A DNA stretch of 64,000 nt from a virus. Positions 10,615 through 35,922 of the stretch are shown here, one piece after another. The notes under the pieces are model-generated. The model saw only the letters and a list, made by a program, of their open reading frames with translations. It was not told the origin of the DNA and made no database searches. The translations under genes and the position numbers were made by a program. The number at the start of each line of letters is the position of its first letter. The first letter of the stretch is position 1. The stretch is from positions 33,311 through 97,310 of IMG/VR virus record IMGVR_UViG_3300047321_000445. The stretch is one strand, 5' to 3'.

Positions 10615-11364
10615 TCAGGCGCCGGGAGCCGCCTCGAACGTGTACTCGTAGCCGACGACCATGCGGCGGGGCAGGCACCATTCCCCGTACTCGATGACCC
10701 CCTGCCCGTCCCACAGCCGGTGCGCGCCGGCCAGGATGGGCGCCCCGATCGGCAGGGCGAGGAAATTCGCTTCACGGGCGTCGGCGTCCCGGCCGTGGAC
10801 GTCGTCGCGGCCGTTGGTGATGCGGCGTCCGGTGGCCTGCTGGATCCTCAGCAGCAGTCCGGGCGACGTGTGCGGGGACGTCGACAGCAGCTCGGGAACG
10901 CTCCCGGCGAGGTGCGCCGGGTACCAGGTGACGAAGAGCCCGGTTCGCTGCTTGCCCTTGCCGGTGTGCCACTGACGGCGCACCACCTGGTCGCCCTCGC
11001 CGAGGTCGAGGAGCTCGGCCACGTACTGCGGGGGTTTGACCATCTCGGCCGCTGTGACGATCATCGTCTCGCCCTCGGCGAGGACGCTGCCGGTGCGCAG
11101 GACGCGGGTGATCCGCTCGTAGGAGCTGGGGACGACCTCGGGTGCGTTCGCAACGAACGTGCCGCGGCGGCTGGTGGTGATGTAGCCCTCCACCTGGAGC
11201 TGGTCGATTGCCCGCCCGAGGGTGGCGATCGAGACGCCGTGCGACTCGGCCAGCTCTCGCTGTCCGGGCAGCTTGGCGCCCTCCTGATAACCGTCCTCGC
11301 CGTCGAGGATGCTGCGTCGGATGTCGGCCGCTACGCGCATGTACGGGTGTTCGGTCTCGGGCAT
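10615..11364 (-). CDS. GntR/HutC-family repressor (KorSA/TraR-like)
   Basis: PYMRVAADIRRSI..GAKLPGQRELAESHGVSIATLGRAIDQL winged HTH plus UTRA-like C-terminus; located in a tra/spd element. Confidence 0.9.
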   Translation of the reverse strand: MPETEHPYMRVAADIRRSILDGEDGYQEGAKLPGQRELAESHGVSIATLGRAIDQLQVEGYITTSRRGTFVANAPEVVPSSYERITRVLRTGSVLAEGETMIVTAAEMVKPPQYVAELLDLGEGDQVVRRQWHTGKGKQRTGLFVTWYPAHLAGSVPELLSTSPHTSPGLLLRIQQATGRRITNGRDDVHGRDADAREANFLALPIGAPILAGAHRLWDGQGVIEYGEWCLPRRMVVGYEYTFEAAPGA

Positions 11365-11379: not shown

Positions 11380-11489
11380 TGTCCTAGGGCACTGACGAGC
11401 GTACTAGGACACGCGTAATCCTGGGAGGGGGGAATGCGGGTGCACCCTGGTGAAGTGTCCTAGGTCACGCTATGGTCTGTCCTAGGACA
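11380..11489. promoter_or_regulatory. Four TGTCCTAGGACA-type palindromic operators between gntR and the DUF6415 operon
   Basis: Copies at 11380-91, 11400-11, 11456-67 and 11478-89 (perfect); candidate -10 TATGGT at 11471. Confidence 0.85.
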
Positions 11490-11548: not shown

Positions 11549-11917
11549 ATGACGAAGACCGTAGACACAGCGAGTGAGACCGCGCCCGTAGACGTCGCCA
11601 CGATGCGCGAGGCCATCAGCCGGCTGCTCTTGGCTGAGGCTGAACTGCCCGCCAGCGAGGAGCTGGCGACACTGACCGTACAGCTGCGCGGGCACATGCA
11701 GCTGCTCATCCCGGAAGTCGAGGCAGCCGCCGCGAAGCTGCACAGGGACGACGTGGCCCGGTACTGCGCGCTCGCCTGCCTCGGCACGGCCCGCAACCGG
11801 CTCCAGGAGCGGCCGAACCCGAACCCCGGTGGAGACGTCGCGTACGCCCGGCGTCTGGCCCGCGCGCTCAACGCCCTCGTGGACCACAGCGAGAACCTGA
11901 CCGCCCCGAGCTGCTGA
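11549..11917 (+). CDS. DUF6415-family protein
   Basis: PVDVATMR...LRGHMQLLIPEVE...ARRLARAL pattern; AGGAG RBS. Confidence 0.8.
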   Translation: MTKTVDTASETAPVDVATMREAISRLLLAEAELPASEELATLTVQLRGHMQLLIPEVEAAAAKLHRDDVARYCALACLGTARNRLQERPNPNPGGDVAYARRLARALNALVDHSENLTAPSC

Positions 11918-12019
11918 CACCCACAGACCCCCGCCCTCGGGCCCCAGTCCATGGACAGGTCGAGCCCGGGGGCGGGTCGCACCATCGGAAGTCACCTGAC
12001 ACCCGAGGAGAAACACGCC

Positions 12020-12943
12020 ATGACGATCGCTCCCGAGGTTCCCGTCCGGCAGACAGTGCCGGAGTTCCTGGAGCTTGAGATCACCGGCCGCTGTCAGCTC
12101 AGCTGCGGCCACTGCTACGCGGAGTCGGGGCCGACCAACGGCCACGGCACCATGACCGGCGACGACTGGCGGCGGGTCATCACCGAGGCCGCCGCCCTCG
12201 GCACGAAGATCGTGCAGTTCATCGGTGGTGAGCCCACACTGTCGCCCGAATTCGCCGGGCTCGTCTGGCACGCCCTGGAAGCCGGCCTGCGGGTGCAGGT
12301 GTACAGCAACCTGTACCGGGTGCGCGCCGAGCACTGGGACCTGTTCGCGCACCCGCGCGTGAGCCTGGGGACGTCGTACTACTCCGACGTCCCGGACGAG
12401 CACGACGCGATCACCGGCCGGAAGGGCTCTCACGAGTCGACCAGGGCGAACATCGTGGAGGCCATGCGCCGGAACATCCCGGTGAAGGTCGGCATCGTCC
12501 ACATGCGTGACGGGCAGCGCTCCGAGGAAGCCCGCGCCGAGATGGCCGCGCTCGGTGTGGCCCGGGTGCACATCGACCGGGTCCGTGCCGTCGGCAACGC
12601 CTCGACGGCGAAGACGCTGATCCCGTCCACGTCGGAGCTGTGCGGGCGGTGCGCGGACGGGAAGGCGGCAATCCTCCCTGACGGGAAGGTCGCCCCGTGT
12701 GTGCTGGGCCGGTTCCTGCCCGCCGGGGACGTCAAGTCTGGTTCCCTGGAGCAGGTGTTCACCGGGCAGCTGTGGGCGCAGGTCGCGGCGAGCATCCCGC
12801 GACAGCAGCGGACCGCCGGGTGCCTGCCGGACGAGGACTCGTGCCAGCCCGCGCCGCGGAACACCGCCCAGGGCTGCAACCCTGACAGCGACGGTTCGGA
12901 CTGCTCGCCGGCCGAGACCCCGGCCTGCGACCCCTCGTACTAG
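12020..12943 (+). CDS. Radical SAM/SPASM(twitch) protein with C-terminal Cys-x-Pro repeat tail
   Basis: CQLSCGHC, GGEP, CGRC...ILPDGKVAPC; tail CLPDEDSCQP..CNPDSDGSDCSP..CDPSY. Confidence 0.9.
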   Translation: MTIAPEVPVRQTVPEFLELEITGRCQLSCGHCYAESGPTNGHGTMTGDDWRRVITEAAALGTKIVQFIGGEPTLSPEFAGLVWHALEAGLRVQVYSNLYRVRAEHWDLFAHPRVSLGTSYYSDVPDEHDAITGRKGSHESTRANIVEAMRRNIPVKVGIVHMRDGQRSEEARAEMAALGVARVHIDRVRAVGNASTAKTLIPSTSELCGRCADGKAAILPDGKVAPCVLGRFLPAGDVKSGSLEQVFTGQLWAQVAASIPRQQRTAGCLPDEDSCQPAPRNTAQGCNPDSDGSDCSPAETPACDPSY

Positions 12944-12954
12944 GAGACGCCCGG

Positions 12955-14085
12955 ATGGATTGGCAGACGCACGCACGGCGCCTCGCGGCCGATGTGGTCC
13001 GGCCCGAATCACGCTGGTACGAACCGCTCGCCAGCACGCCCCGGCATGTGTTCGTGCCGCGCTGGTGGGCGAACCGCGACGGAAGTTGGGAGCTGCGCGA
13101 CGGTAGCGCCGACCCCGGCGCGTGGATGCGGGCCGCCTACGCGGACCGGACACTCGTGACCCGCATCGGCCCCGTGCACGCCGACCACGCCGAACCCGGC
13201 GCCACGGTCACGGAGGGGAAACCCACGTCCTCATCCACGCTGCCGGGCCTGGTGGTCACCATGTACCGGCACGCGGCCATAGCCGACGACTCCCGGGTCC
13301 TGGTGACGACCGGCACCGGCTACGGCACGGCACTGCTGTGCCGACGACTGGGCGATGAGCGGGTGACGAGTGTGGACGTCGACCCGCATCTGGTGAAGGT
13401 CGCAGCGGAACGCCTCGATTCCATCGGGGTGCACCCGTACACAGCTGTCGTCGACATCACCCGGCACGATCTGGGGCGGCACGACCGGATCGTGTCCACC
13501 GTGTCCGTACGAGCCGTGCCGGCCTCGTGGCTGGCCGCTCTGCGGCCCGGTGGGCGGCTCGTGACGACCATCGCGGGAACCGGGTTGATCCTCATTGCGG
13601 ACAAGACCGAGGACGGCGGGGCTGTGGGCCGCATCGCCCCCGACGCGGCGGGGTTCATGCGCACTCGCCACGGCGACGACTATGACGACGCGACAGCGGA
13701 GGTGTGGAGGAAGGCGCAGTGGATCGACGGTGAGGAAGTGAGCACCAGCCGGTATCCGCTGTTGTACGTGCCGGACTCGTGGGAGGTGATGTCGATGCTG
13801 GAGCTGAAGGTCCCGGGCATCGACCACCGGATCGTGCAGAACGGCAGCGAGCGGACGGTGTGGATGCTGCACGCCGACGGCTCCTGGGCCCGAGCGTACG
13901 CAGCGGAGTCCCTCGACTCGCCGACGGTGTATCAGGGCGGTCCCCGCCGCCTGTGGGACGAACTGGAGCGTGTCCGGAACCGGCTCAACCGTGAGGGCGG
14001 GCTCCCCTTGTACGGTGCCCGGGTCACCATCACCCCGGATGGCGTGACCACGCTGTCGCGAGGTTCCTGGTCCCTCACCCTGTAG
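12955..14085 (+). CDS. Protein-L-isoaspartate O-methyltransferase-like (RiPP-associated type)
   Basis: PRHVFVP, PTSSSTLPGLV, TGTGYGTALL, VTSVDVD, LRPGGRLV, C-terminal QGGPRRLWD. Confidence 0.9.
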   Translation: MDWQTHARRLAADVVRPESRWYEPLASTPRHVFVPRWWANRDGSWELRDGSADPGAWMRAAYADRTLVTRIGPVHADHAEPGATVTEGKPTSSSTLPGLVVTMYRHAAIADDSRVLVTTGTGYGTALLCRRLGDERVTSVDVDPHLVKVAAERLDSIGVHPYTAVVDITRHDLGRHDRIVSTVSVRAVPASWLAALRPGGRLVTTIAGTGLILIADKTEDGGAVGRIAPDAAGFMRTRHGDDYDDATAEVWRKAQWIDGEEVSTSRYPLLYVPDSWEVMSMLELKVPGIDHRIVQNGSERTVWMLHADGSWARAYAAESLDSPTVYQGGPRRLWDELERVRNRLNREGGLPLYGARVTITPDGVTTLSRGSWSLTL

Positions 14086-15825: not shown

Positions 15826-17067
15826 CTACTCGTCGTCGGCCGCCGCCATGCCGCGCAGCAGGTCCACCACGGCCCGGCAGTCGCCCAACGCGCGGTGCTC
15901 GCCCCCGGCCAAGGGCTGCCATGCGTAGTCCCCGTGGTAGTCGGACCAGTCGCCGACCCATTCCGAGTACGGCAGCATCACGTCCTCCGACCGCACCTCG
16001 GCGAGCCAGGCCGCGGCGGCCGCTGCCGGGTCCGGGTGGCCGGCCTGCCGGTAGTGGACCGTCAGCTCGTGCCGCAGCCGGCCGACGTCGAACGGCTCGT
16101 TGTAGATCAGGCAGCGGCGACCGTCCAACGCTGCGGTGAGCTGCGGCAGGAGAGTCGTGAACGACGGCGCCCCGGCCACCTTGTCGTCGGTGATGCCGTG
16201 CAGGTCGGACACGTCCGGGGGGATCGGCTCGCCCGGGTTGACGAGCGTGTCCAGCAGCACCTTCCCGCCCGTGCTGTAGACCCCGAGCTCTACGATCCGC
16301 GCCTCGTCGTGCAGGCCGGTGGTCTCGCAGTCCAGCACGGCCACGTCCGGGTCGTCGACCAGGGCCCGCGCCCAGTCCACGAGCTCGGCCACACGCCGAC
16401 GCCGCTCCTCGACCGCGCGCTCCTCGGCCTCCTCGTACTGCCGCTGCCGCTCGGCCCGCTCCAGCTCGTCGCGTACCTTGCACGGCGGACACCACACTGG
16501 CGTCCAATACCCGCGCTCGGCCCTCCCCGCGGCGATCTCCTCATCGGTGGCCGTGACCACCTCACAGTCCCGACCCGGGCACGTACGCCGCCATGCGGCC
16601 TCGGCTTCCTGCTCTGCCTGCTGGCGTAGCGCTTTGCGGATGCGGCAGTGCTCGCACGCCCCCCAGCCGTGCACGTCCTTCGCCAACGCCGAACCGGACT
16701 CACGGCGGCACCAATGGCAGGTCCGGGCCCGCCGCTCCTGCGCCTCCTGCTGCGCCCGCCTACGGCAGTCCTCGCAGCGCTGGTACACCACATAGCCGCG
16801 GACCTCCCGGCACTCGGGGCAGGTACGCCGGGCCGTCATCGCCTGCTGCTGCTTCGCCGACAACGGCCGCATCGCCTCCGCCCCGGCCGGGTCGTACAGC
16901 GGGAACTCGCCCCACCCGTGACCGCGCCGGTACATCCGCAGGAAGCCCACGGGCTGTTGCCCCTCGGCCGGCTTGAGCCGCTGCGCCTTCAGCTGCGTCG
17001 TGGTCCGCAGATGGTCCGGGACGTCGCCGGACTTGTAGACGGGCAGGGCTTCCGATTCCGTGGTCAA
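15826..17067 (-). CDS. DEDDh 3'-5' exonuclease (DnaQ-like) with N-terminal Zn-binding region
   Basis: VLDCETTG, LVNP, LHGIT, YNEPFD, HRALGD; RRTCPEC; TTG start with GGAGG RBS. Confidence 0.9.
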   Translation of the reverse strand: MTTESEALPVYKSGDVPDHLRTTTQLKAQRLKPAEGQQPVGFLRMYRRGHGWGEFPLYDPAGAEAMRPLSAKQQQAMTARRTCPECREVRGYVVYQRCEDCRRRAQQEAQERRARTCHWCRRESGSALAKDVHGWGACEHCRIRKALRQQAEQEAEAAWRRTCPGRDCEVVTATDEEIAAGRAERGYWTPVWCPPCKVRDELERAERQRQYEEAEERAVEERRRRVAELVDWARALVDDPDVAVLDCETTGLHDEARIVELGVYSTGGKVLLDTLVNPGEPIPPDVSDLHGITDDKVAGAPSFTTLLPQLTAALDGRRCLIYNEPFDVGRLRHELTVHYRQAGHPDPAAAAAAWLAEVRSEDVMLPYSEWVGDWSDYHGDYAWQPLAGGEHRALGDCRAVVDLLRGMAAADDE

Positions 17068-17173
17068 CGGGCACCTCCGAGCAGACTGAGGGGGGTCAGG
17101 GACCAAGCACAGCGCACGCCACTGACAACGCGCGGCAGGTCCCGCCCGGCTCGGGCGGGACCTGCCGGGATGC

Positions 17174-19161: not shown

Positions 19162-19212
19162 TTGACCTAGGACACCGCAGGGTTGTACAAGTGTATTGAA
19201 CAGGTTGTACAA
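19162..19212 (+). promoter_or_regulatory. Promoter region with a GntR box (19163-74) and two TTGTACAA palindromes
   Basis: TTGACC overlapping TGACCTAGGACA; GGTTGTACAAGT twice. Confidence 0.7.
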
Positions 19213-19249
19213 GTCTCTTGAACAACCCTCCCGGAAGGAGCGGTGCGCG

Positions 19250-19480
19250 ATGACCACCAAGCACACGCACCAGGTCGTGTTCGGTCGCCGGGTCGACGGG
19301 TGCCCGCGCTGCGCGGAGCTCGCAGCGGGCGCCGAGCCGGTCCGCTGGAGGGGCTGGACGCGCGAGCGTGAGCTCACCGGTGGCTACCCGACCAGCCGTG
19401 AGATTGACGCCCACTTCGCCCCGGGTGGACCGCACACCCGAGGCGACTGCGGCCCCGTCTGCACGTTCGGGGACTGGTGA
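19250..19480 (+). CDS. Small Cys/His-rich hypothetical protein
   Basis: AAGGAG RBS; CPRC...CGPVCTFGDW. Confidence 0.75.
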   Translation: MTTKHTHQVVFGRRVDGCPRCAELAAGAEPVRWRGWTRERELTGGYPTSREIDAHFAPGGPHTRGDCGPVCTFGDW

Positions 19481-19543
19481 CCGCAATCGGCGGCAGTCCG
19501 CGCCGAGTTCGGATGGATCAGTTCCGGAAACGTCTTCCCATCG

Positions 19544-19577
19544 TGTCCTAGGACAAGATACGTTCCGTCCTAGGACA
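19544..19577. promoter_or_regulatory. Two GntR operators upstream of the spd/tra operon
   Basis: TGTCCTAGGACA 19544-55; CGTCCTAGGACA 19566-77. Confidence 0.85.
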
Positions 19578-19618
19578 TGCGTTCCCCTCTCGCACGTCTC
19601 CTCGAAAGGACCCCTCAC

Positions 19619-21205
19619 GTGACCGCCGCAGTCTCGGCCCGTCTGCTGAGCACCGCCACGGCCGCTCCCGTTCCGGGACCGCCGACCGCCGTTCCGGGCA
19701 CGGCGGCTGCCACTTCGGTTCCGTCCCGCTCGGTTCCCGACGCGGTCTCCGTCGTTCCGGACACGGCGCCTGCCGTTCCCGACGCGGCCCCCGCCGTTCC
19801 GGGCGCGGCCTCCGAGCGTTCCGGACGCGCCCTGTCCGCCGTCGCCATCGTCGGCGGTGCCATCCTCGCCGGGATCGGTTTCACCGGCTCCTACAACGCG
19901 TTGAGGGACCTGGCTTTCAAGCACGGCTTGGGCACCTTCTCCTACGCCTTCCCGGTCGGTATCGACGCCGGGATCGTGGTCCTGTACGTGCTGGACCTGT
20001 ACCTGATCCGTCGTCGCTCTCCGTGGCCGCTGCTGCGGTCGCTGGCCCACCTGCTGACCGTCGCCACCATCGTCTTCAACGCGGCCTCAGCTGACGGGCC
20101 GGCCAGTGCCGACCCGATCGGCACCGCGATGCACGCGGTCATCCCCGTCATGTTCGTCGCCTCCGTGGAGGCCGCCCGCAGGCTCGTCGTGCGGGTGTCT
20201 GACTTTGAGGACGGCCGTGACAGTCAGGGCATCCCGCTGACCCGCTGGGCGCTCTCCCCGGCCCCCACGTACGCCCTGTGGCGCCGCATGAAGCTGTGGG
20301 ACAAGCAGTCCTACCAGGAGGTTGTGGCGCTGGAGCAGGAGCGCACCGTGTACAAGGCCATGCTCCAGCGCCGGTACGGCAGGCGCTGGAAGAGGCGCGC
20401 CCCGAAGGACGAAATGCTGCCCCTGACTATGGCCCGCTACGGCCTGACAGTTGACGAAGCCCTCGCCCTGCCCCGGCAGGCGCTGGAAGCCGAGCAGCTG
20501 CGCAAGGAGCAGAACGAGGCCCTGGAGCTGGAGGCGCAGCAGCGCGCCGAGGAGCGCGCCGCCGCAGCCCGCATCCACAGCATCAACACGCAAGGTGACG
20601 TCGAGGCGGCCACGCACGCGACCGCGGCGAGGGTCGACGCGGCGAAGTCGGCCGCGAACGCGACCCGCACAGAGGCCGAGCTCGCCGCCGAGACGCAGTC
20701 CCGCATCGCCCAGGAGACCGCGCAGGCGGTCGAGTCGGCGGAGGCCGCCGAAGCTCGACGGCGCGCAGCCGAAGCCGAGCGGGCCGCAGCCGAAGCGCGA
20801 GCCGTCGCAGCCGAAACGAACCAGGCCGCTGCCGGAATGGAAGAGGCCGCGTCCGAAGCGCGCGCCCGTGCCGCCGAGAACGCCCGGCGCGAGGCCGTAG
20901 CACGGGCGGAACTTGAGACCGCTGAGCGGACCGCAGCCGAAGCCAGGCAGCGTGCAGCCGAAGCCAGGGAGCGTGCGGCCGGAATCGAACTCCGTGCAAC
21001 CGAAGCGGAGGATGCCGCCCGCCTCACGCCCCGGGAACGGACCGTCCGCAAGGTCGCCCGCATGGCACTGGTCGAGCACGACGGCCGCCTCACACAGCTC
21101 CCGCTCGAAGCCATCACCGAAGCGTTCGGGGTGTCTTCCACGACCGCCTCGGAGTACCGCAAGGAAGCCGGCGCGCTGATCGCCGACGGATACCGGATCC
21201 ACTGA
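19619..21205 (+). CDS. DUF2637 / SpdB-like plasmid-spreading membrane protein
   Basis: IGFTGSYNALRDLA, FPVGIDAGI, ATIVFNA, RWALSP...LWRRMKLW; four hydrophobic segments, coiled coil, C-terminal HTH. Confidence 0.85.
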   Translation: MTAAVSARLLSTATAAPVPGPPTAVPGTAAATSVPSRSVPDAVSVVPDTAPAVPDAAPAVPGAASERSGRALSAVAIVGGAILAGIGFTGSYNALRDLAFKHGLGTFSYAFPVGIDAGIVVLYVLDLYLIRRRSPWPLLRSLAHLLTVATIVFNAASADGPASADPIGTAMHAVIPVMFVASVEAARRLVVRVSDFEDGRDSQGIPLTRWALSPAPTYALWRRMKLWDKQSYQEVVALEQERTVYKAMLQRRYGRRWKRRAPKDEMLPLTMARYGLTVDEALALPRQALEAEQLRKEQNEALELEAQQRAEERAAAARIHSINTQGDVEAATHATAARVDAAKSAANATRTEAELAAETQSRIAQETAQAVESAEAAEARRRAAEAERAAAEARAVAAETNQAAAGMEEAASEARARAAENARREAVARAELETAERTAAEARQRAAEARERAAGIELRATEAEDAARLTPRERTVRKVARMALVEHDGRLTQLPLEAITEAFGVSSTTASEYRKEAGALIADGYRIH

Positions 21206-22169: not shown

Positions 22170-24293
22170 ATGGCCCGCGTCACCAGCACCACCAACGGCA
22201 AGACCGAGCAGGTCAACACGGCGCAGGCCACGGACCTCGTGCCGGTCGGCAAGGGGGGTGTCGTCTCCCACCTGCTCGGCAAGGCACTGCCGTACGCCTC
22301 TCCGTGGCTCGGCGCCGGTGCACTCCCGCCGCTCGCCGGGCTCGCCACGAACACCATGTGGGGCGACACCGCCGTCCACGCCGGGTTCGCCTCCGCAGGG
22401 CTCGGGATCGGCGGAGCCGTCCTCTCCGCTGTGACCTGGCAGGTTGCCGGGGGGAACAACAAGTTCCGTCGCTTCCGGCGCGCCCAGGCCACCGCGAGCG
22501 TGGCGGCGGGGATGGGCTGGCTGACGGCCGCGACCTCGGCCGGCCCGTTCGGCCACCCCATGATCGACCTGTGGCTGATGGGGGGCGGCCTGTTCGCCGC
22601 CTCCTGGAACATCCGGTCGGTCATGCGGAACGCCCACGACGAGACTGAGCAGGTCGAGGGCAAGAGCGGACTGGGCAAGATCGCTGAGGCGATCGGGCTG
22701 GAGAAGGTGAAGGTCAGGGACGCCAAGGGCAACGGCAAGGGCATGGTGAAGGCGGCCATCGAGGTCGCTCCCGGGGCGACCCTGGACGACGTGCAGGCGG
22801 CTCTCCCGAAGCTGACCGCGGCCCTGCACGTCCCCGGCTCCGGTGCCACCGTCACCAAGGACCTGGAAAACGCTGGTGAGGGCGTCATCAACCTGCGTGT
22901 CGCAGACCTGCTGAAGGACGGAGTCGAGTTCATACCGCCCATCCGGCTGGGCATGCTGCCGAACGAACCGCTGCCGCTCGGCCTGTACGCGGACGGCGAA
23001 GAGTTCATCATCAACCCGTTCGACGCCGAGATCCTCCAGCACCTGCTGGTCATGGGCGTCACCGGCGCAGGCAAGAGCGAGTTCGCCCGCGGCCTGCTCG
23101 CCCACCTGATGACCCGCCGCAAGATGACCGTGATGGTCGTCGACACCGCCAAGGGCCGTCAGTCCATGGGGCACATTGCCCACGGGGTGGACTGGTTCGT
23201 CACCACCACCCGCGAGGCAAAGCACCTGCTCAAGGCCCTGCCCGGGGCCATCCAGGCACGCGGCGACGTCCTCGCGGAAGAGGGCCTGGACCAGTGGACA
23301 CCCAAGTCCAGGCTGAACGCCATGGTGGTCTGGGTCGAAGAGGCCGCCGACCTCGCCGACTTCGCCGAGCTGGACGAGATCGCCCGCAAGGCGCGCTCGG
23401 TCGGCATCTGGCTGGTGATCTCGCTCCAGCGCGCGACCTGGACGAACGTGTCCACCGACGTCCGCGCCAACCTCCAGGCGTCCGCGTGCTTCGGCGTGGA
23501 CACCGCAGGGGACGCCGGATTCGGCCTGCCCGCCCGCGTGACCGACGCAGGCGCCATCCCGGACTGGGGCGCCACCCGACCCGGCTACGCCTTCGCCACC
23601 GGCATGGGAATCCCCGATAACCGCTGGACGATGGAGTGGCGCTCGGGCCTGACCGACCGGGAGTTCCTGTCCGCGCTGGTCACGGCCGCAACACCGTTCC
23701 GTGACCCGCTGGACGACACGACCGCGAAGGCCCTGGGTTTGGCGTACGCGCAGCGCACCCGCCCGGGCACGAACCGGATGAACATGCAGGCCAGCGAGGC
23801 GCAGGAGGCCAGCTCCGCTCAGCAGCTGCTGGCCGCCGCGCACGTGCTGGGCGAGGCACTGGAGGACGCCGGAGTGGACCTGAACAGTCTGCCCACGGGC
23901 AGCGACGACGAGCGCATCGAGGTGGAGATGGAGGACGCATACGCCGAGGTCATGGGCATGATCCCGGACGATCCGGAGCCGGGCGCGCCGTACGCGAACC
24001 TGGATCTGGACGACGACATGCCCGAAGACACCGACACCGGGATGGAGTTCGCGGAGCCCGAGAAGCTTCCGCCTGCGGACGCCCGGCGCCTGCTGCACGA
24101 GCAGCTGCACGAGTGGGCGCAGCGGGACCGGCTCACGTTCCAGCCTGCGGACCTGGCCCCGGTCACGGTCGCAGCCGGCCGGAAGCGGCCGTGGCTCCAG
24201 GGCGAGTTGAAGCGGCTGGTGGAGGCGGGTGTGCTGCGGCACGACTCGCACGGCGAGTACGACATCGTCCAGTCGCCGCTTGTGCCCGCATAG
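22170..24293 (+). CDS. traB: FtsK/SpoIIIE-like conjugative DNA translocase TraB
   Basis: N-terminal TM segments, Walker A GVTGAGKS, VWVEEA, ARKARSVGIWLVISLQRA, C-terminal winged helix. Confidence 0.92.
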   Translation: MARVTSTTNGKTEQVNTAQATDLVPVGKGGVVSHLLGKALPYASPWLGAGALPPLAGLATNTMWGDTAVHAGFASAGLGIGGAVLSAVTWQVAGGNNKFRRFRRAQATASVAAGMGWLTAATSAGPFGHPMIDLWLMGGGLFAASWNIRSVMRNAHDETEQVEGKSGLGKIAEAIGLEKVKVRDAKGNGKGMVKAAIEVAPGATLDDVQAALPKLTAALHVPGSGATVTKDLENAGEGVINLRVADLLKDGVEFIPPIRLGMLPNEPLPLGLYADGEEFIINPFDAEILQHLLVMGVTGAGKSEFARGLLAHLMTRRKMTVMVVDTAKGRQSMGHIAHGVDWFVTTTREAKHLLKALPGAIQARGDVLAEEGLDQWTPKSRLNAMVVWVEEAADLADFAELDEIARKARSVGIWLVISLQRATWTNVSTDVRANLQASACFGVDTAGDAGFGLPARVTDAGAIPDWGATRPGYAFATGMGIPDNRWTMEWRSGLTDREFLSALVTAATPFRDPLDDTTAKALGLAYAQRTRPGTNRMNMQASEAQEASSAQQLLAAAHVLGEALEDAGVDLNSLPTGSDDERIEVEMEDAYAEVMGMIPDDPEPGAPYANLDLDDDMPEDTDTGMEFAEPEKLPPADARRLLHEQLHEWAQRDRLTFQPADLAPVTVAAGRKRPWLQGELKRLVEAGVLRHDSHGEYDIVQSPLVPA

Positions 24294-33015: not shown

Positions 33016-33426
33016 ATGGCCAATGACCTGAGCGTGGGCGGCGACATGCTCGCCCACCAGAACCTGCTTCCACCCGAGCCCGAGGCCCCCGAAACGGTCG
33101 CCGACTATGCCGCCCTCGCGGACCGGCTGGCCGCCCGCTACCAGCACGCCATGCGCACGTACGACATGCCGGTGCTCATCGAGACGAGCGCCAACCATGC
33201 GGCCTGGCTGGTGTCGTGGGAGCCCGGACAGCGCAGGGACGCCGAGACCCGCCGCGTGTGCCGACTGGTCGCCGTCCTCGACGGCACCCTCACCGAACGC
33301 ACCCCGACCGGTGTCCGGCCCGTGCACCAGCACACCCAACGTTTCCACCCTCCCGGCTGCTGGCCCGAGCTCGTCAACGACACCACCCGCCCGGCCACAG
33401 CCGTACTCATCTACTTCCGGTCCTGA
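33016..33426 (+). CDS. Degenerate cysteine-dioxygenase-like cupin
   Basis: WLVSWEPGQ, VLDGTLTE, LVN..PATAVLIY; His metal ligands are missing. Confidence 0.5.
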   Translation: MANDLSVGGDMLAHQNLLPPEPEAPETVADYAALADRLAARYQHAMRTYDMPVLIETSANHAAWLVSWEPGQRRDAETRRVCRLVAVLDGTLTERTPTGVRPVHQHTQRFHPPGCWPELVNDTTRPATAVLIYFRS

Positions 33427-34422: not shown

Positions 34423-35922
34423 ATGCTCGCTATCGCTGACCCGCTCGCCATGGCTGCTGACCGGCTGGAGGGCCGTTCTGAGGCTGGCGACCGGTACCCC
34501 ACCCCGCACGATCTGGCCCGCGAACTGGACCCGAAGATCGTGCGCACGCCCGCGCTTGAGCTGCTCGACGAAGTCCTCATCGACTGCGCCGAGGGCCGCA
34601 CGAACCGGCTGATCTTCTCCATGCCCCCGCAGGAGGGCAAGTCGCAGCGCGTCAGCCGCACCTTCCCGGCGTGGCTGCTGTCCCGCGACCCCGACCTGCG
34701 TATCGCCATCGCCTCCTACGAGGCGAACACGGCGCGCCGCTGGGGCCGCGCGGTCCGCAACGACATCAAGGGAAACCCGGACAAGTTCGCGCTGCGGATC
34801 CGCCGAGACACCTCCTCCGCCATTGAGTGGCAGGTCGAGGACCACCAGGGCGGCGTGTACAGCGTCGGTATCGGGGGTGCCCTCACCGGCCGCCCGGTCG
34901 ACGTGTTGATCATTGACGACCCGGTCAAGGGCCGTGCACAGGCCGAATCGGAGACGTTCCGGCAGGCCGCATGGGACTTCTGGACCGACACGGCCCGCAC
35001 GCGTTTCGGTCCCAACACCGTCGTTGTCGTGGTCCTCACCCGCTGGCATGAGGACGACCTCGCCGGGCGGCTCCTCGCGCAGGACGTCCGCAAAGAGTGG
35101 CGGTACATCAACATCCCGGCCGAGGCCGACCACGACCCCTACAAGGGGGAGACGGATCCGCTCGGCCGCGAGCCGGGCGAGTTCCTGTTGTCCGCCCGTG
35201 GCCGCACCGCCAAGGACTGGCAGGACACCAGGGACGACGTCGGCTCGCGTACCTGGACGTCGCTGTACCAGGGCCGGCCTGCCCCGGCCGAGGGCGGCCT
35301 GTTCAAACGAGGGGACTGGCGCTGGTACGTCGCCCCGAAGGCGGTCCGCCGCCAGGACGGCACGATGTGGGTCCACGACGCGGACGAGATCATCCAGTCG
35401 TGGGACATGGCGTTCAAAGACACCAAGGGCTCGGACTATGTCGTCGGGCAGGTGTGGGCCCGGTTCGGGGCCAGCGTGTACCTGCTGGACCAGGTCCGTG
35501 ACCGGCTCGACTTCCCGGCCACGCAGCAGGCCGTCAAGGCACTGTCGGCGAAGTGGCCGCAGACGTTCGCAAAGCTCGTCGAAGACAAGGCGAACGGCCC
35601 GGCGATCATCGCCCAGCTTCAGGCGACCGTGCCCGGTCTGATCCCGATCACCCCGAAAGACTCCAAATACGCGCGCGCGTCGGCCGTGGCGCCGTTCGTC
35701 GAAGCGGGAAACGTGTGGCTGCCCGATCCGTCGTTCGCCCCGTGGATCGAAGACTTCGTCTCCGAACTCGGAGGCTTCCCGAACGGCAGCAATGACGACC
35801 AGGTCGACACCACCAGCCAGGCCCTCCAGCGGCTGCTGGCCGGACAGTTCAGCGCCGACCAGGCCATGGACTGGCTCCGCGGCTACGGCAACAACCCGAA
35901 CCCCGAGGGAAGGCAGCAGTGA
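34423..35922 (+). CDS. terL: Terminase large subunit
   Basis: MPPQEGKS, LIIDDPVK, TRWHEDD, SWDMA, EDKANG, DDQVD. Confidence 0.95.
   Translation: MLAIADPLAMAADRLEGRSEAGDRYPTPHDLARELDPKIVRTPALELLDEVLIDCAEGRTNRLIFSMPPQEGKSQRVSRTFPAWLLSRDPDLRIAIASYEANTARRWGRAVRNDIKGNPDKFALRIRRDTSSAIEWQVEDHQGGVYSVGIGGALTGRPVDVLIIDDPVKGRAQAESETFRQAAWDFWTDTARTRFGPNTVVVVVLTRWHEDDLAGRLLAQDVRKEWRYINIPAEADHDPYKGETDPLGREPGEFLLSARGRTAKDWQDTRDDVGSRTWTSLYQGRPAPAEGGLFKRGDWRWYVAPKAVRRQDGTMWVHDADEIIQSWDMAFKDTKGSDYVVGQVWARFGASVYLLDQVRDRLDFPATQQAVKALSAKWPQTFAKLVEDKANGPAIIAQLQATVPGLIPITPKDSKYARASAVAPFVEAGNVWLPDPSFAPWIEDFVSELGGFPNGSNDDQVDTTSQALQRLLAGQFSADQAMDWLRGYGNNPNPEGRQQ

Follow-up and report, generated by a model that had tools for sequence, protein, structure and literature searches.

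The window examined here, a stretch of 64,000 nucleotides (nt) from a virus record (IMG/VR record IMGVR_UViG_3300047321_000445, positions 33,311 to 97,310), contains a Streptomyces mobile-element operon in which a radical S-adenosylmethionine (radical SAM) enzyme ends in an Asp-rich tail of Cys-x-Pro (C-x-P) units and is followed by a PAMT-type methyltransferase. Open reading frame (ORF) calling on the window places three ORFs, all in the same direction, between positions 11549 and 14085 (Table 1). The DUF6415 protein may start at Met19 (nt 11603), the residue at which its Atlas entry begins. The long radical SAM ORF spans 11951-12943; because homologues begin MTIAPE, we take the ATG at 12020, which has a GAGGAG 8 nt before it, as the true start, giving a protein of 307 amino acids. 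An original prediction, made from the letters of this stretch, had quoted a tail of five C-x-P units, and this tail is present exactly as quoted, with Cys at residues 268, 275, 286, 295, and 303 of 307 and an Asp-Gly site included. The same prediction saw no separate precursor gene in the operon; indeed, neither of the two intergenic gaps, of 102 nt (11918-12019) and 11 nt (12944-12954), holds a small ORF. Its PIMT-like methyltransferase likewise stands, with an architecture typical of peptide-modifying PAMTs.

Table 1. Coordinates of the operon and associated features in the window
Feature	Positions	Strand	Support or remark
GntR/UTRA-family regulator, divergent from operon	10615..11364	-	Pfam GntR E=4e-12, UTRA E=2e-8
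Palindrome GTCCTAGGAC, four copies (0-1 mismatch)	11381..11488	.	Promoter region between GntR gene and operon; candidate operator
DUF6415 protein	11549..11917	+	Pfam PF19979 E=5e-30
Radical SAM core and twitch-like half-SPASM domain, residues 1-267	12020..12820	+	
Asp-rich tail, five C-x-P units (residues 268-307), and stop codon	12821..12943	+	
PAMT-type (extended PIMT) O-methyltransferase, 376 amino acids	12955..14085	+	Pfam PCMT E=1e-9
DUF2637 gene	19577-21205		
FtsK-like gene	22170-24293		

The N-terminal part of the radical SAM protein is readily assigned. Residues C25, C29, and C32 form the CX3CX2C cluster motif, and the match to Pfam Radical_SAM (PF04055; E=5e-17, 62.9 bits against a cut-off of 29.5) places the protein in the superfamily. 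A full SPASM domain contains seven or eight Cys, arranged as CX9-15GX4C, a gap, and CX2CX5CX3C, and carries two auxiliary clusters. Here, the SPASM match (PF13186) covers only profile positions 2-52 of 67 and, at 22.6 bits, lies just above the cut-off of 21.5. CX2CX5CX3C is absent, and because only the first half of the domain (C211-x10-G-x4-C227) is present, we call it twitch-like. Beyond the core motif and the tail, only C208-x2-C211-x15-C227 is invariant in the family alignment, a pattern resembling what we take to be the three-cysteine CX2CX13C auxiliary site of MoaA, in which one iron is presumably open for substrate.

Structure prediction with AlphaFold2 (AF2) on 115 sequences yields a confident core, with a predicted local distance difference test score (pLDDT) of >95 over most of residues 11-260. 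The closest solved structure is SkfB (profile E=4e-29, Foldseek E=3.5e-17), followed by SuiB, EpeE, and CteB; these nearest solved relatives of the core are peptide maturases, which we count in favor of a tail that serves as a tethered substrate. The core begins at about residue 15, and neither Pfam searches nor the AF2 model revealed an RRE/PqqD match or an N-terminal leader-binding domain. Further, the protein scores far below the cut-offs of all NCBIfam maturase models, and the RRE domain and separate precursor gene by which sactipeptide and ranthipeptide maturases are recognized are both missing from the protein and its operon.

The family to which this protein belongs is large, comprising 451 clusters at 50% identity (E<1e-30), and tail statistics were drawn from 238 homologues with an identifiable twitch motif. 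Pro occupies position +2 after 1,361 of 1,419 tail Cys (96%), compared with 18% of tail residues overall, an enrichment of C-x-P far beyond chance. The number of tail Cys ranges from none, in one homologue only, to 55 in P0163, a protein of 645 amino acids with as many C-x-P units. P0129 carries ten near-identical tandem units of 11 residues with one C-H-P each and P0052 a triplicated unit; the tandem duplications in P0129, P0052, and P0163 are near-perfect. Spacing between tail Cys is broad (3-8 residues), with C-x-x-C making up just 2% of spacings. The variable number of units and their tandem duplication argue for a substrate motif that is used iteratively, not for a fixed set of ligands. 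The extreme tails (P0163, P0198, and P0129) are found in metagenome proteins only.

The tail itself is predicted to be unstructured. Over residues 268-307, pLDDT is about 42 in the AF2 run with 115 sequences and about 32 in a clade-specific run with 45 sequences, in which the tail is neither folded nor docked; the range over the two runs is 30-44. Within the Streptomyces clade, the ratio of nonsynonymous to synonymous differences (pN/pS) in the tail is 0.52, the same as in the core (uncorrected, from 961 non-independent pairs), and rises to 0.70 after removal of the Cys and Pro columns; we count the match between tail and core as a further point for a tethered substrate.

These properties bear on the possibility that the tail represents the second half of a SPASM domain in degenerate form, with its Cys ligating one or more auxiliary clusters. 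The tail follows the CX9-15GX4C hairpin and a helix, exactly at the location of the SPASM Cys, nearly all members have at least one tail Cys, and the 3 + 5 = 8 non-core Cys of the window protein would be enough for two fully ligated clusters. However, such a domain is hard to reconcile with a Cys number of 1-55, unconserved spacing, the absence of CX2CX5CX3C, and a SPASM match that ends at position 52 of 67. The linker before the first tail Cys also varies in length, no fold is predicted, and the three invariant upstream Cys would presumably suffice for a cluster of the MoaA-like CX2CX13C type. We consider this explanation very unlikely.

The second conserved component is the methyltransferase. 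A PCMT domain covers residues 97-221 (E=1e-9) and is accompanied by an extra C-terminal domain, the combination that distinguishes PAMTs. TIGR04188, the model for the aspartyl O-methyltransferase of graspetide-associated ATP-grasp peptide maturase systems, aligns end to end (residues 7-364 on profile positions 2-361 of 363). Because its score of 260.7 bits falls below the cut-off of 380 and the operon contains no ATP-grasp gene, we regard the protein as part of a sister group of TIGR04188, not as a member. Among solved structures, only canonical PIMTs match it.

Gene linkage was counted in 80 genome loci (L001-L080). The methyltransferase gene lies directly downstream of the radical SAM gene in 76 of the 80, and the four exceptions are truncated contigs or broken genes. 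No other neighbor is conserved in these loci, and no conserved small ORF adjoins the pair. DUF6415, which the original prediction took for a regular companion of such clusters, is upstream in only 16/80 loci even when an iterated profile is included, ruling it out as a constant partner. The GntR regulator and conjugation genes, present in 1/80 loci, were ruled out as constant neighbors as well. The variable neighbors also include APH-like proteins, with an APH-like gene upstream in about 10 Streptomyces loci. In the flanks of L001-L080, WhiJ-type modules (HTH_31/DUF5753, HATPase_c_2, and DUF6879) recur in Streptomyces genomes.

Among the 301 Streptomycetaceae species genomes sampled, 61 carry the radical SAM gene, at no more than 3 copies per genome; in an even sample of 401 genomes from the whole phylum, 4 gave a match. 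One metagenome contig (L163:4619-8907) has two tandem radical SAM-methyltransferase pairs; the two radical SAM proteins differ in their C-x-P tails, and the gene of the first methyltransferase is split across two frames. Decayed copies also occur: an IS30-like transposase cuts the radical SAM gene after the twitch domain in L083:1465-3653, and in L084:1486-2160 the radical SAM protein ends at 224 amino acids, right before an intact methyltransferase.

A different arrangement is seen in 80 soil-metagenome loci (L085-L164) picked with a profile of more distant family members. These mostly lack the methyltransferase and instead have an APH-like phosphotransferase and a small AAA_21 ATPase downstream; in L100:4866-7471, for example, the radical SAM gene is followed by genes for the AAA_21 ATPase and the APH-like phosphotransferase. 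Tails of this sister clade are Asp-poor strings of C-x-P, often with a four-residue period and often ending in C-x-P-N-Y-D. We considered whether either arrangement belongs to a known defense system and rejected this, as PADLOC matches were generic only: the radical SAM protein hit viperin models, the methyltransferase hit mad2, and the AAA_21 protein hit many ATPase models.

Tail composition differs with the partner. The median fraction of Asp plus Glu in the tail is 0.18 where the methyltransferase is adjacent (n=81), compared to 0.07 where it is not (n=52). A D[GS] dipeptide occurs in 79/81 and 6/52 tails, respectively, and the loop C-x-P-(0-3)-D-[GS]-(1-3)-C in 62/81 and 1/52. The methyltransferase-linked tails outside these 62 have D-S within a longer Cys-bounded loop. 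In the window tail, the Asp loop reads C286-N-P-D-S-D-G-S-D-C295. Action of the methyltransferase on the tail would predict such a pattern, but most of the difference is one between clades.

The Asp loop is also relevant to a second explanation, in which the tail would be a metal-binding module for zinc (Zn) or an Fe-S cluster, folded by its Cys into hairpins in which the Asp-Gly/Ser loop becomes accessible to the methyltransferase, while the radical SAM core does something other than cross-link the tail Cys. A Zn-tetracysteine hairpin, in which the Asp sits between Cys motifs, is required by cysimiditide methyltransferases (PMC13001092). D-[GS] similarly lies between two Cys in the 62 of 81 methyltransferase-linked tails counted above, and AF2 is blind to metal-dependent folding. 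On the other hand, metal sites are not known to use C-x-P, and C-x-x-C accounts for very few of the spacings (2%). Tails with 1-3 or 55 Cys, or with one Cys per 11-residue repeat as in P0129, fit poorly with defined sites, and a strictly linked radical SAM core would be left without a role. We judge a metal module to be unlikely.

The gene linkage speaks to a third explanation, namely, that the true substrate lies elsewhere, as an unlinked peptide or protein, DUF6415, or a small molecule, and that the tail is an accessory for regulation, redox or cluster repair, or docking. The published survey of this gene pair, discussed below, assigned no substrate, and DUF6415 is directly upstream in the window. 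Further, no free-standing tail-like peptide (25-81 amino acids) sharing three 5-residue words was found in the protein collection, and in the sister clade, like tails have a kinase and an ATPase as partners in place of the methyltransferase. A six-frame scan of 165 stretches (164 loci and the window) found that other C-x-P-rich ORFs are only radical SAM tails, frameshifted tails (L125 and L126), and chance shadow frames. Against a substrate elsewhere, only the radical SAM and methyltransferase genes are conserved together (with DUF6415 at 16/80 loci), and no leader-binding domain is present, although peptide-modifying radical SAM enzymes that act in trans normally carry or recruit one. The methyltransferase-specific Asp loop would, in addition, be a coincidence. 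This explanation, too, seems improbable to us.

We propose that the tail is a tethered substrate, the Cys of which would be cross-linked by the radical SAM core before the methyltransferase aspartimidylates it. On the sequence, the structural models, and the analogies drawn below, this is the most economical reading and a plausible answer to the published lack of a substrate for the gene pair; we hold it with a confidence that falls slightly short of even. What the analysis shows is how the sequence is built, which genes are linked, and a tail predicted to lack structure; the first, second, and fourth of the four steps that follow are inferred. In the first, a three-cysteine twitch-type auxiliary cluster would leave an iron site open, to which a tail Cys thiolate could bind, and the core would act on the Cys of every C-x-P unit, whether in its own tail or in that of another copy. 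Judging from SkfB, PapB, and QhpD, the likeliest product would be a thioether that joins Cys to a carbon of a nearby Asp, Glu, or other residue. In the second, the small rings so formed would put a constraint on the Asp-Gly/Ser loop, which is flanked by two C-x-P Cys (C286...D291-G292...C295). In the third, the PAMT-type methyltransferase, which may need a cyclized or hairpin substrate like its characterized relatives, would methylate the Asp and so lead via aspartimide to isoaspartate (isoAsp). In the fourth, the window operon would be cargo of a conjugative element, with a candidate operator common to the transfer genes.

Applied to the family as a whole, this proposal would make the window protein the founding example of a large actinomycete family of self-modifying radical SAM proteins, each with its own iterated C-x-P substrate (1-55 units), that would be poly-cross-linked and then modified by a clade-specific partner, either a PAMT giving aspartimide and isoAsp or a kinase plus ATPase. 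We offer this generalization tentatively, as something that may well prove wrong.

Several observations weigh against the tail as substrate. The divergent clade pairs such a tail with other partners, so the methyltransferase is not essential to the role of the tail. The correlation between partner and tail was placed on a FastTree tree of 129 non-identical cores, from which we omitted incomplete radical SAM ORFs, unrecognizable tails, and loci with <900 nt downstream unless the methyltransferase was present. On this tree, the link between tail acidity and the methyltransferase amounts to about 7 changes with only 5 independent pairs, and an independent-contrast sign test of the methyltransferase against D[GS] tails, underpowered with these 5 pairs, was not significant (median p 0.5). 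No split form of the tail was found, so there is no Rosetta-stone support for its use as a substrate. The low tail pLDDT is no proof of disorder, because AF2 cannot model metal-dependent folding. Since the tail starts where the second SPASM half would lie, at least its first Cys could be a cluster ligand; the SkfB ligands, which we take to be C385 and C387, would lie at the start of the tail. Finally, no conserved protease, exporter, or transporter adjoins the pair in the 80 genome loci, and because nothing of this kind points to a released peptide, the label RiPP (ribosomally synthesized, post-translationally modified peptide) is unproven.

With these points taken into account, the enzyme-precursor fusion put forward in the original prediction holds up in part. 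The alignment of homologues suggested there as a check does give a variable number of C-x-P repeats (1-55 units, including tandem duplications), and the predicted lack of tail structure, the lack of a leader-binding domain, and the adjacent PAMT agree with a fusion; the DUF6415 companion does not survive. The description of the operon as a new system must be narrowed, as the gene pair was already published in the form of 249 radical SAM-PAMT clusters (PMC10787088), and it is the tail as the missing substrate that appears to be new.

The surroundings of the operon describe this copy and not the family, because they are not conserved in other genomes. The palindrome GTCCTAGGAC has 7 matches in the window against 1.9 expected, a number reached in 0/100 shuffles, and it is confined to two promoter regions (11381-11488 and 19164-19576). 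The three copies in the second region lie upstream of the DUF2637 and FtsK/SpoIIIE-like conjugation genes. This distribution supports GTCCTAGGAC as a candidate operator of the divergent GntR/UTRA regulator, which would link the operon with the DUF2637/FtsK-like transfer genes of an actinomycete conjugative element, and a candidate operator common to both hints at a role during element transfer. A large terminase subunit (Terminase_6N/6C; 34423-35922, plus strand) is encoded in the same 97-kb viral-filed record as these conjugation-type genes. Positions 15826-17106 (minus strand) encode a 426-amino-acid protein with an N-terminal RRQRL/CxxC-CxxC zinc-binding region (NF041638, E=2e-13, below cut-off) and a C-terminal DEDD/DnaQ-type exonuclease.

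Literature searches on DUF6415, on CxP with radical SAM, and on PAMT with radical SAM found no study of the C-x-P tail or of the idea that it is a substrate. The nearest precedent is a survey from the Kim laboratory (Adv Sci 2023; PMC10787088), in which 9,408 PAMTs were mined and 249 two-gene radical SAM-PAMT clusters were described with no precursor found; its supplement gives only a gene map for them. These clusters are like the window pair in having a radical SAM gene next to an extended PIMT homologue, in occurring mostly in actinomycetes, and in lacking a separate precursor gene. They differ in that the passages of the paper devoted to them name no substrate and do not mention a C-x-P tail. 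The analysis of the tail, its correlation with the methyltransferase, and the kinase/ATPase sister clade are contributions of the present analysis.

The radical SAM-PAMT pair is common, and the substrate of the 249 published clusters has not been found. If the tail is the substrate, it would supply what these orphan clusters are missing and make the problem tractable as a one-protein question. It would also represent the first radical SAM enzyme-substrate fusion and a new route to a constrained Asp for PAMTs, and the kinase/ATPase sister clade would then indicate a wider, unstudied family of Cys-x-Pro-directed modification.

Among known systems, the closest in structure is SkfB, the maturase of the Bacillus subtilis sporulation killing factor, a thioether synthase that has a radical SAM core with a single-cluster twitch-like domain and acts on peptide Cys. 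In contrast to the window protein, SkfB carries a leader-binding domain at its N terminus and has its precursor, SkfA, as a separate peptide, and because the window protein scores 58 in NCBIfam against a cut-off of 300, it is not an SkfB orthologue. PapB, a ranthipeptide enzyme, and QhpD form Cys-Asp/Glu thioethers iteratively, working on an acidic peptide in which short Cys...Asp/Glu motifs recur. These two enzymes have a full SPASM domain, separate precursors or subunits, and the motif C-x3-D, whereas the window protein has a twitch-like domain, its own tail, and C-x-P. The anaerobic sulfatase-maturating enzyme, which is among the fold matches, is a radical SAM enzyme that recognizes Cys-x-Pro and abstracts a Cys beta-hydrogen; it differs from the window protein in its complete, two-cluster SPASM domain and in acting on sulfatases, at the motif C/S-x-P/A-x-R. 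A formylglycine product of this type is a weakened candidate for the C-x-P tails, with Arg outside the eight commonest residues at +4 after Cys (E, C, P, and D lead).

On the methyltransferase side, PAMTs have an extra C-terminal domain in common and modify Asp only in macrocyclic or hairpin-like regions (PMC11285071; PMC13001092). The cysimiditides (type II pamtides) and other aspartimidylated RiPPs share with the window pair a PAMT with this extra domain and a single Asp, placed in a constrained loop that Cys residues bound. What constrains the loop in their case is Zn-(CXXCXGXG)2, an ATP-grasp enzyme, or a lasso or lanthionine ring, and a small gene of its own encodes the precursor; the window pair has a radical SAM enzyme as the partner, and that enzyme carries the candidate substrate as a fusion. 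The fusion itself is most reminiscent of the borosins (OphMA type), in which, as described in PMC7878506, a catalytic domain carries the substrate peptide at its own C terminus. There, the catalytic domain is an N-methyltransferase with proven autocatalysis, whereas here it is a radical SAM enzyme for which autocatalysis is proposed from the architecture.

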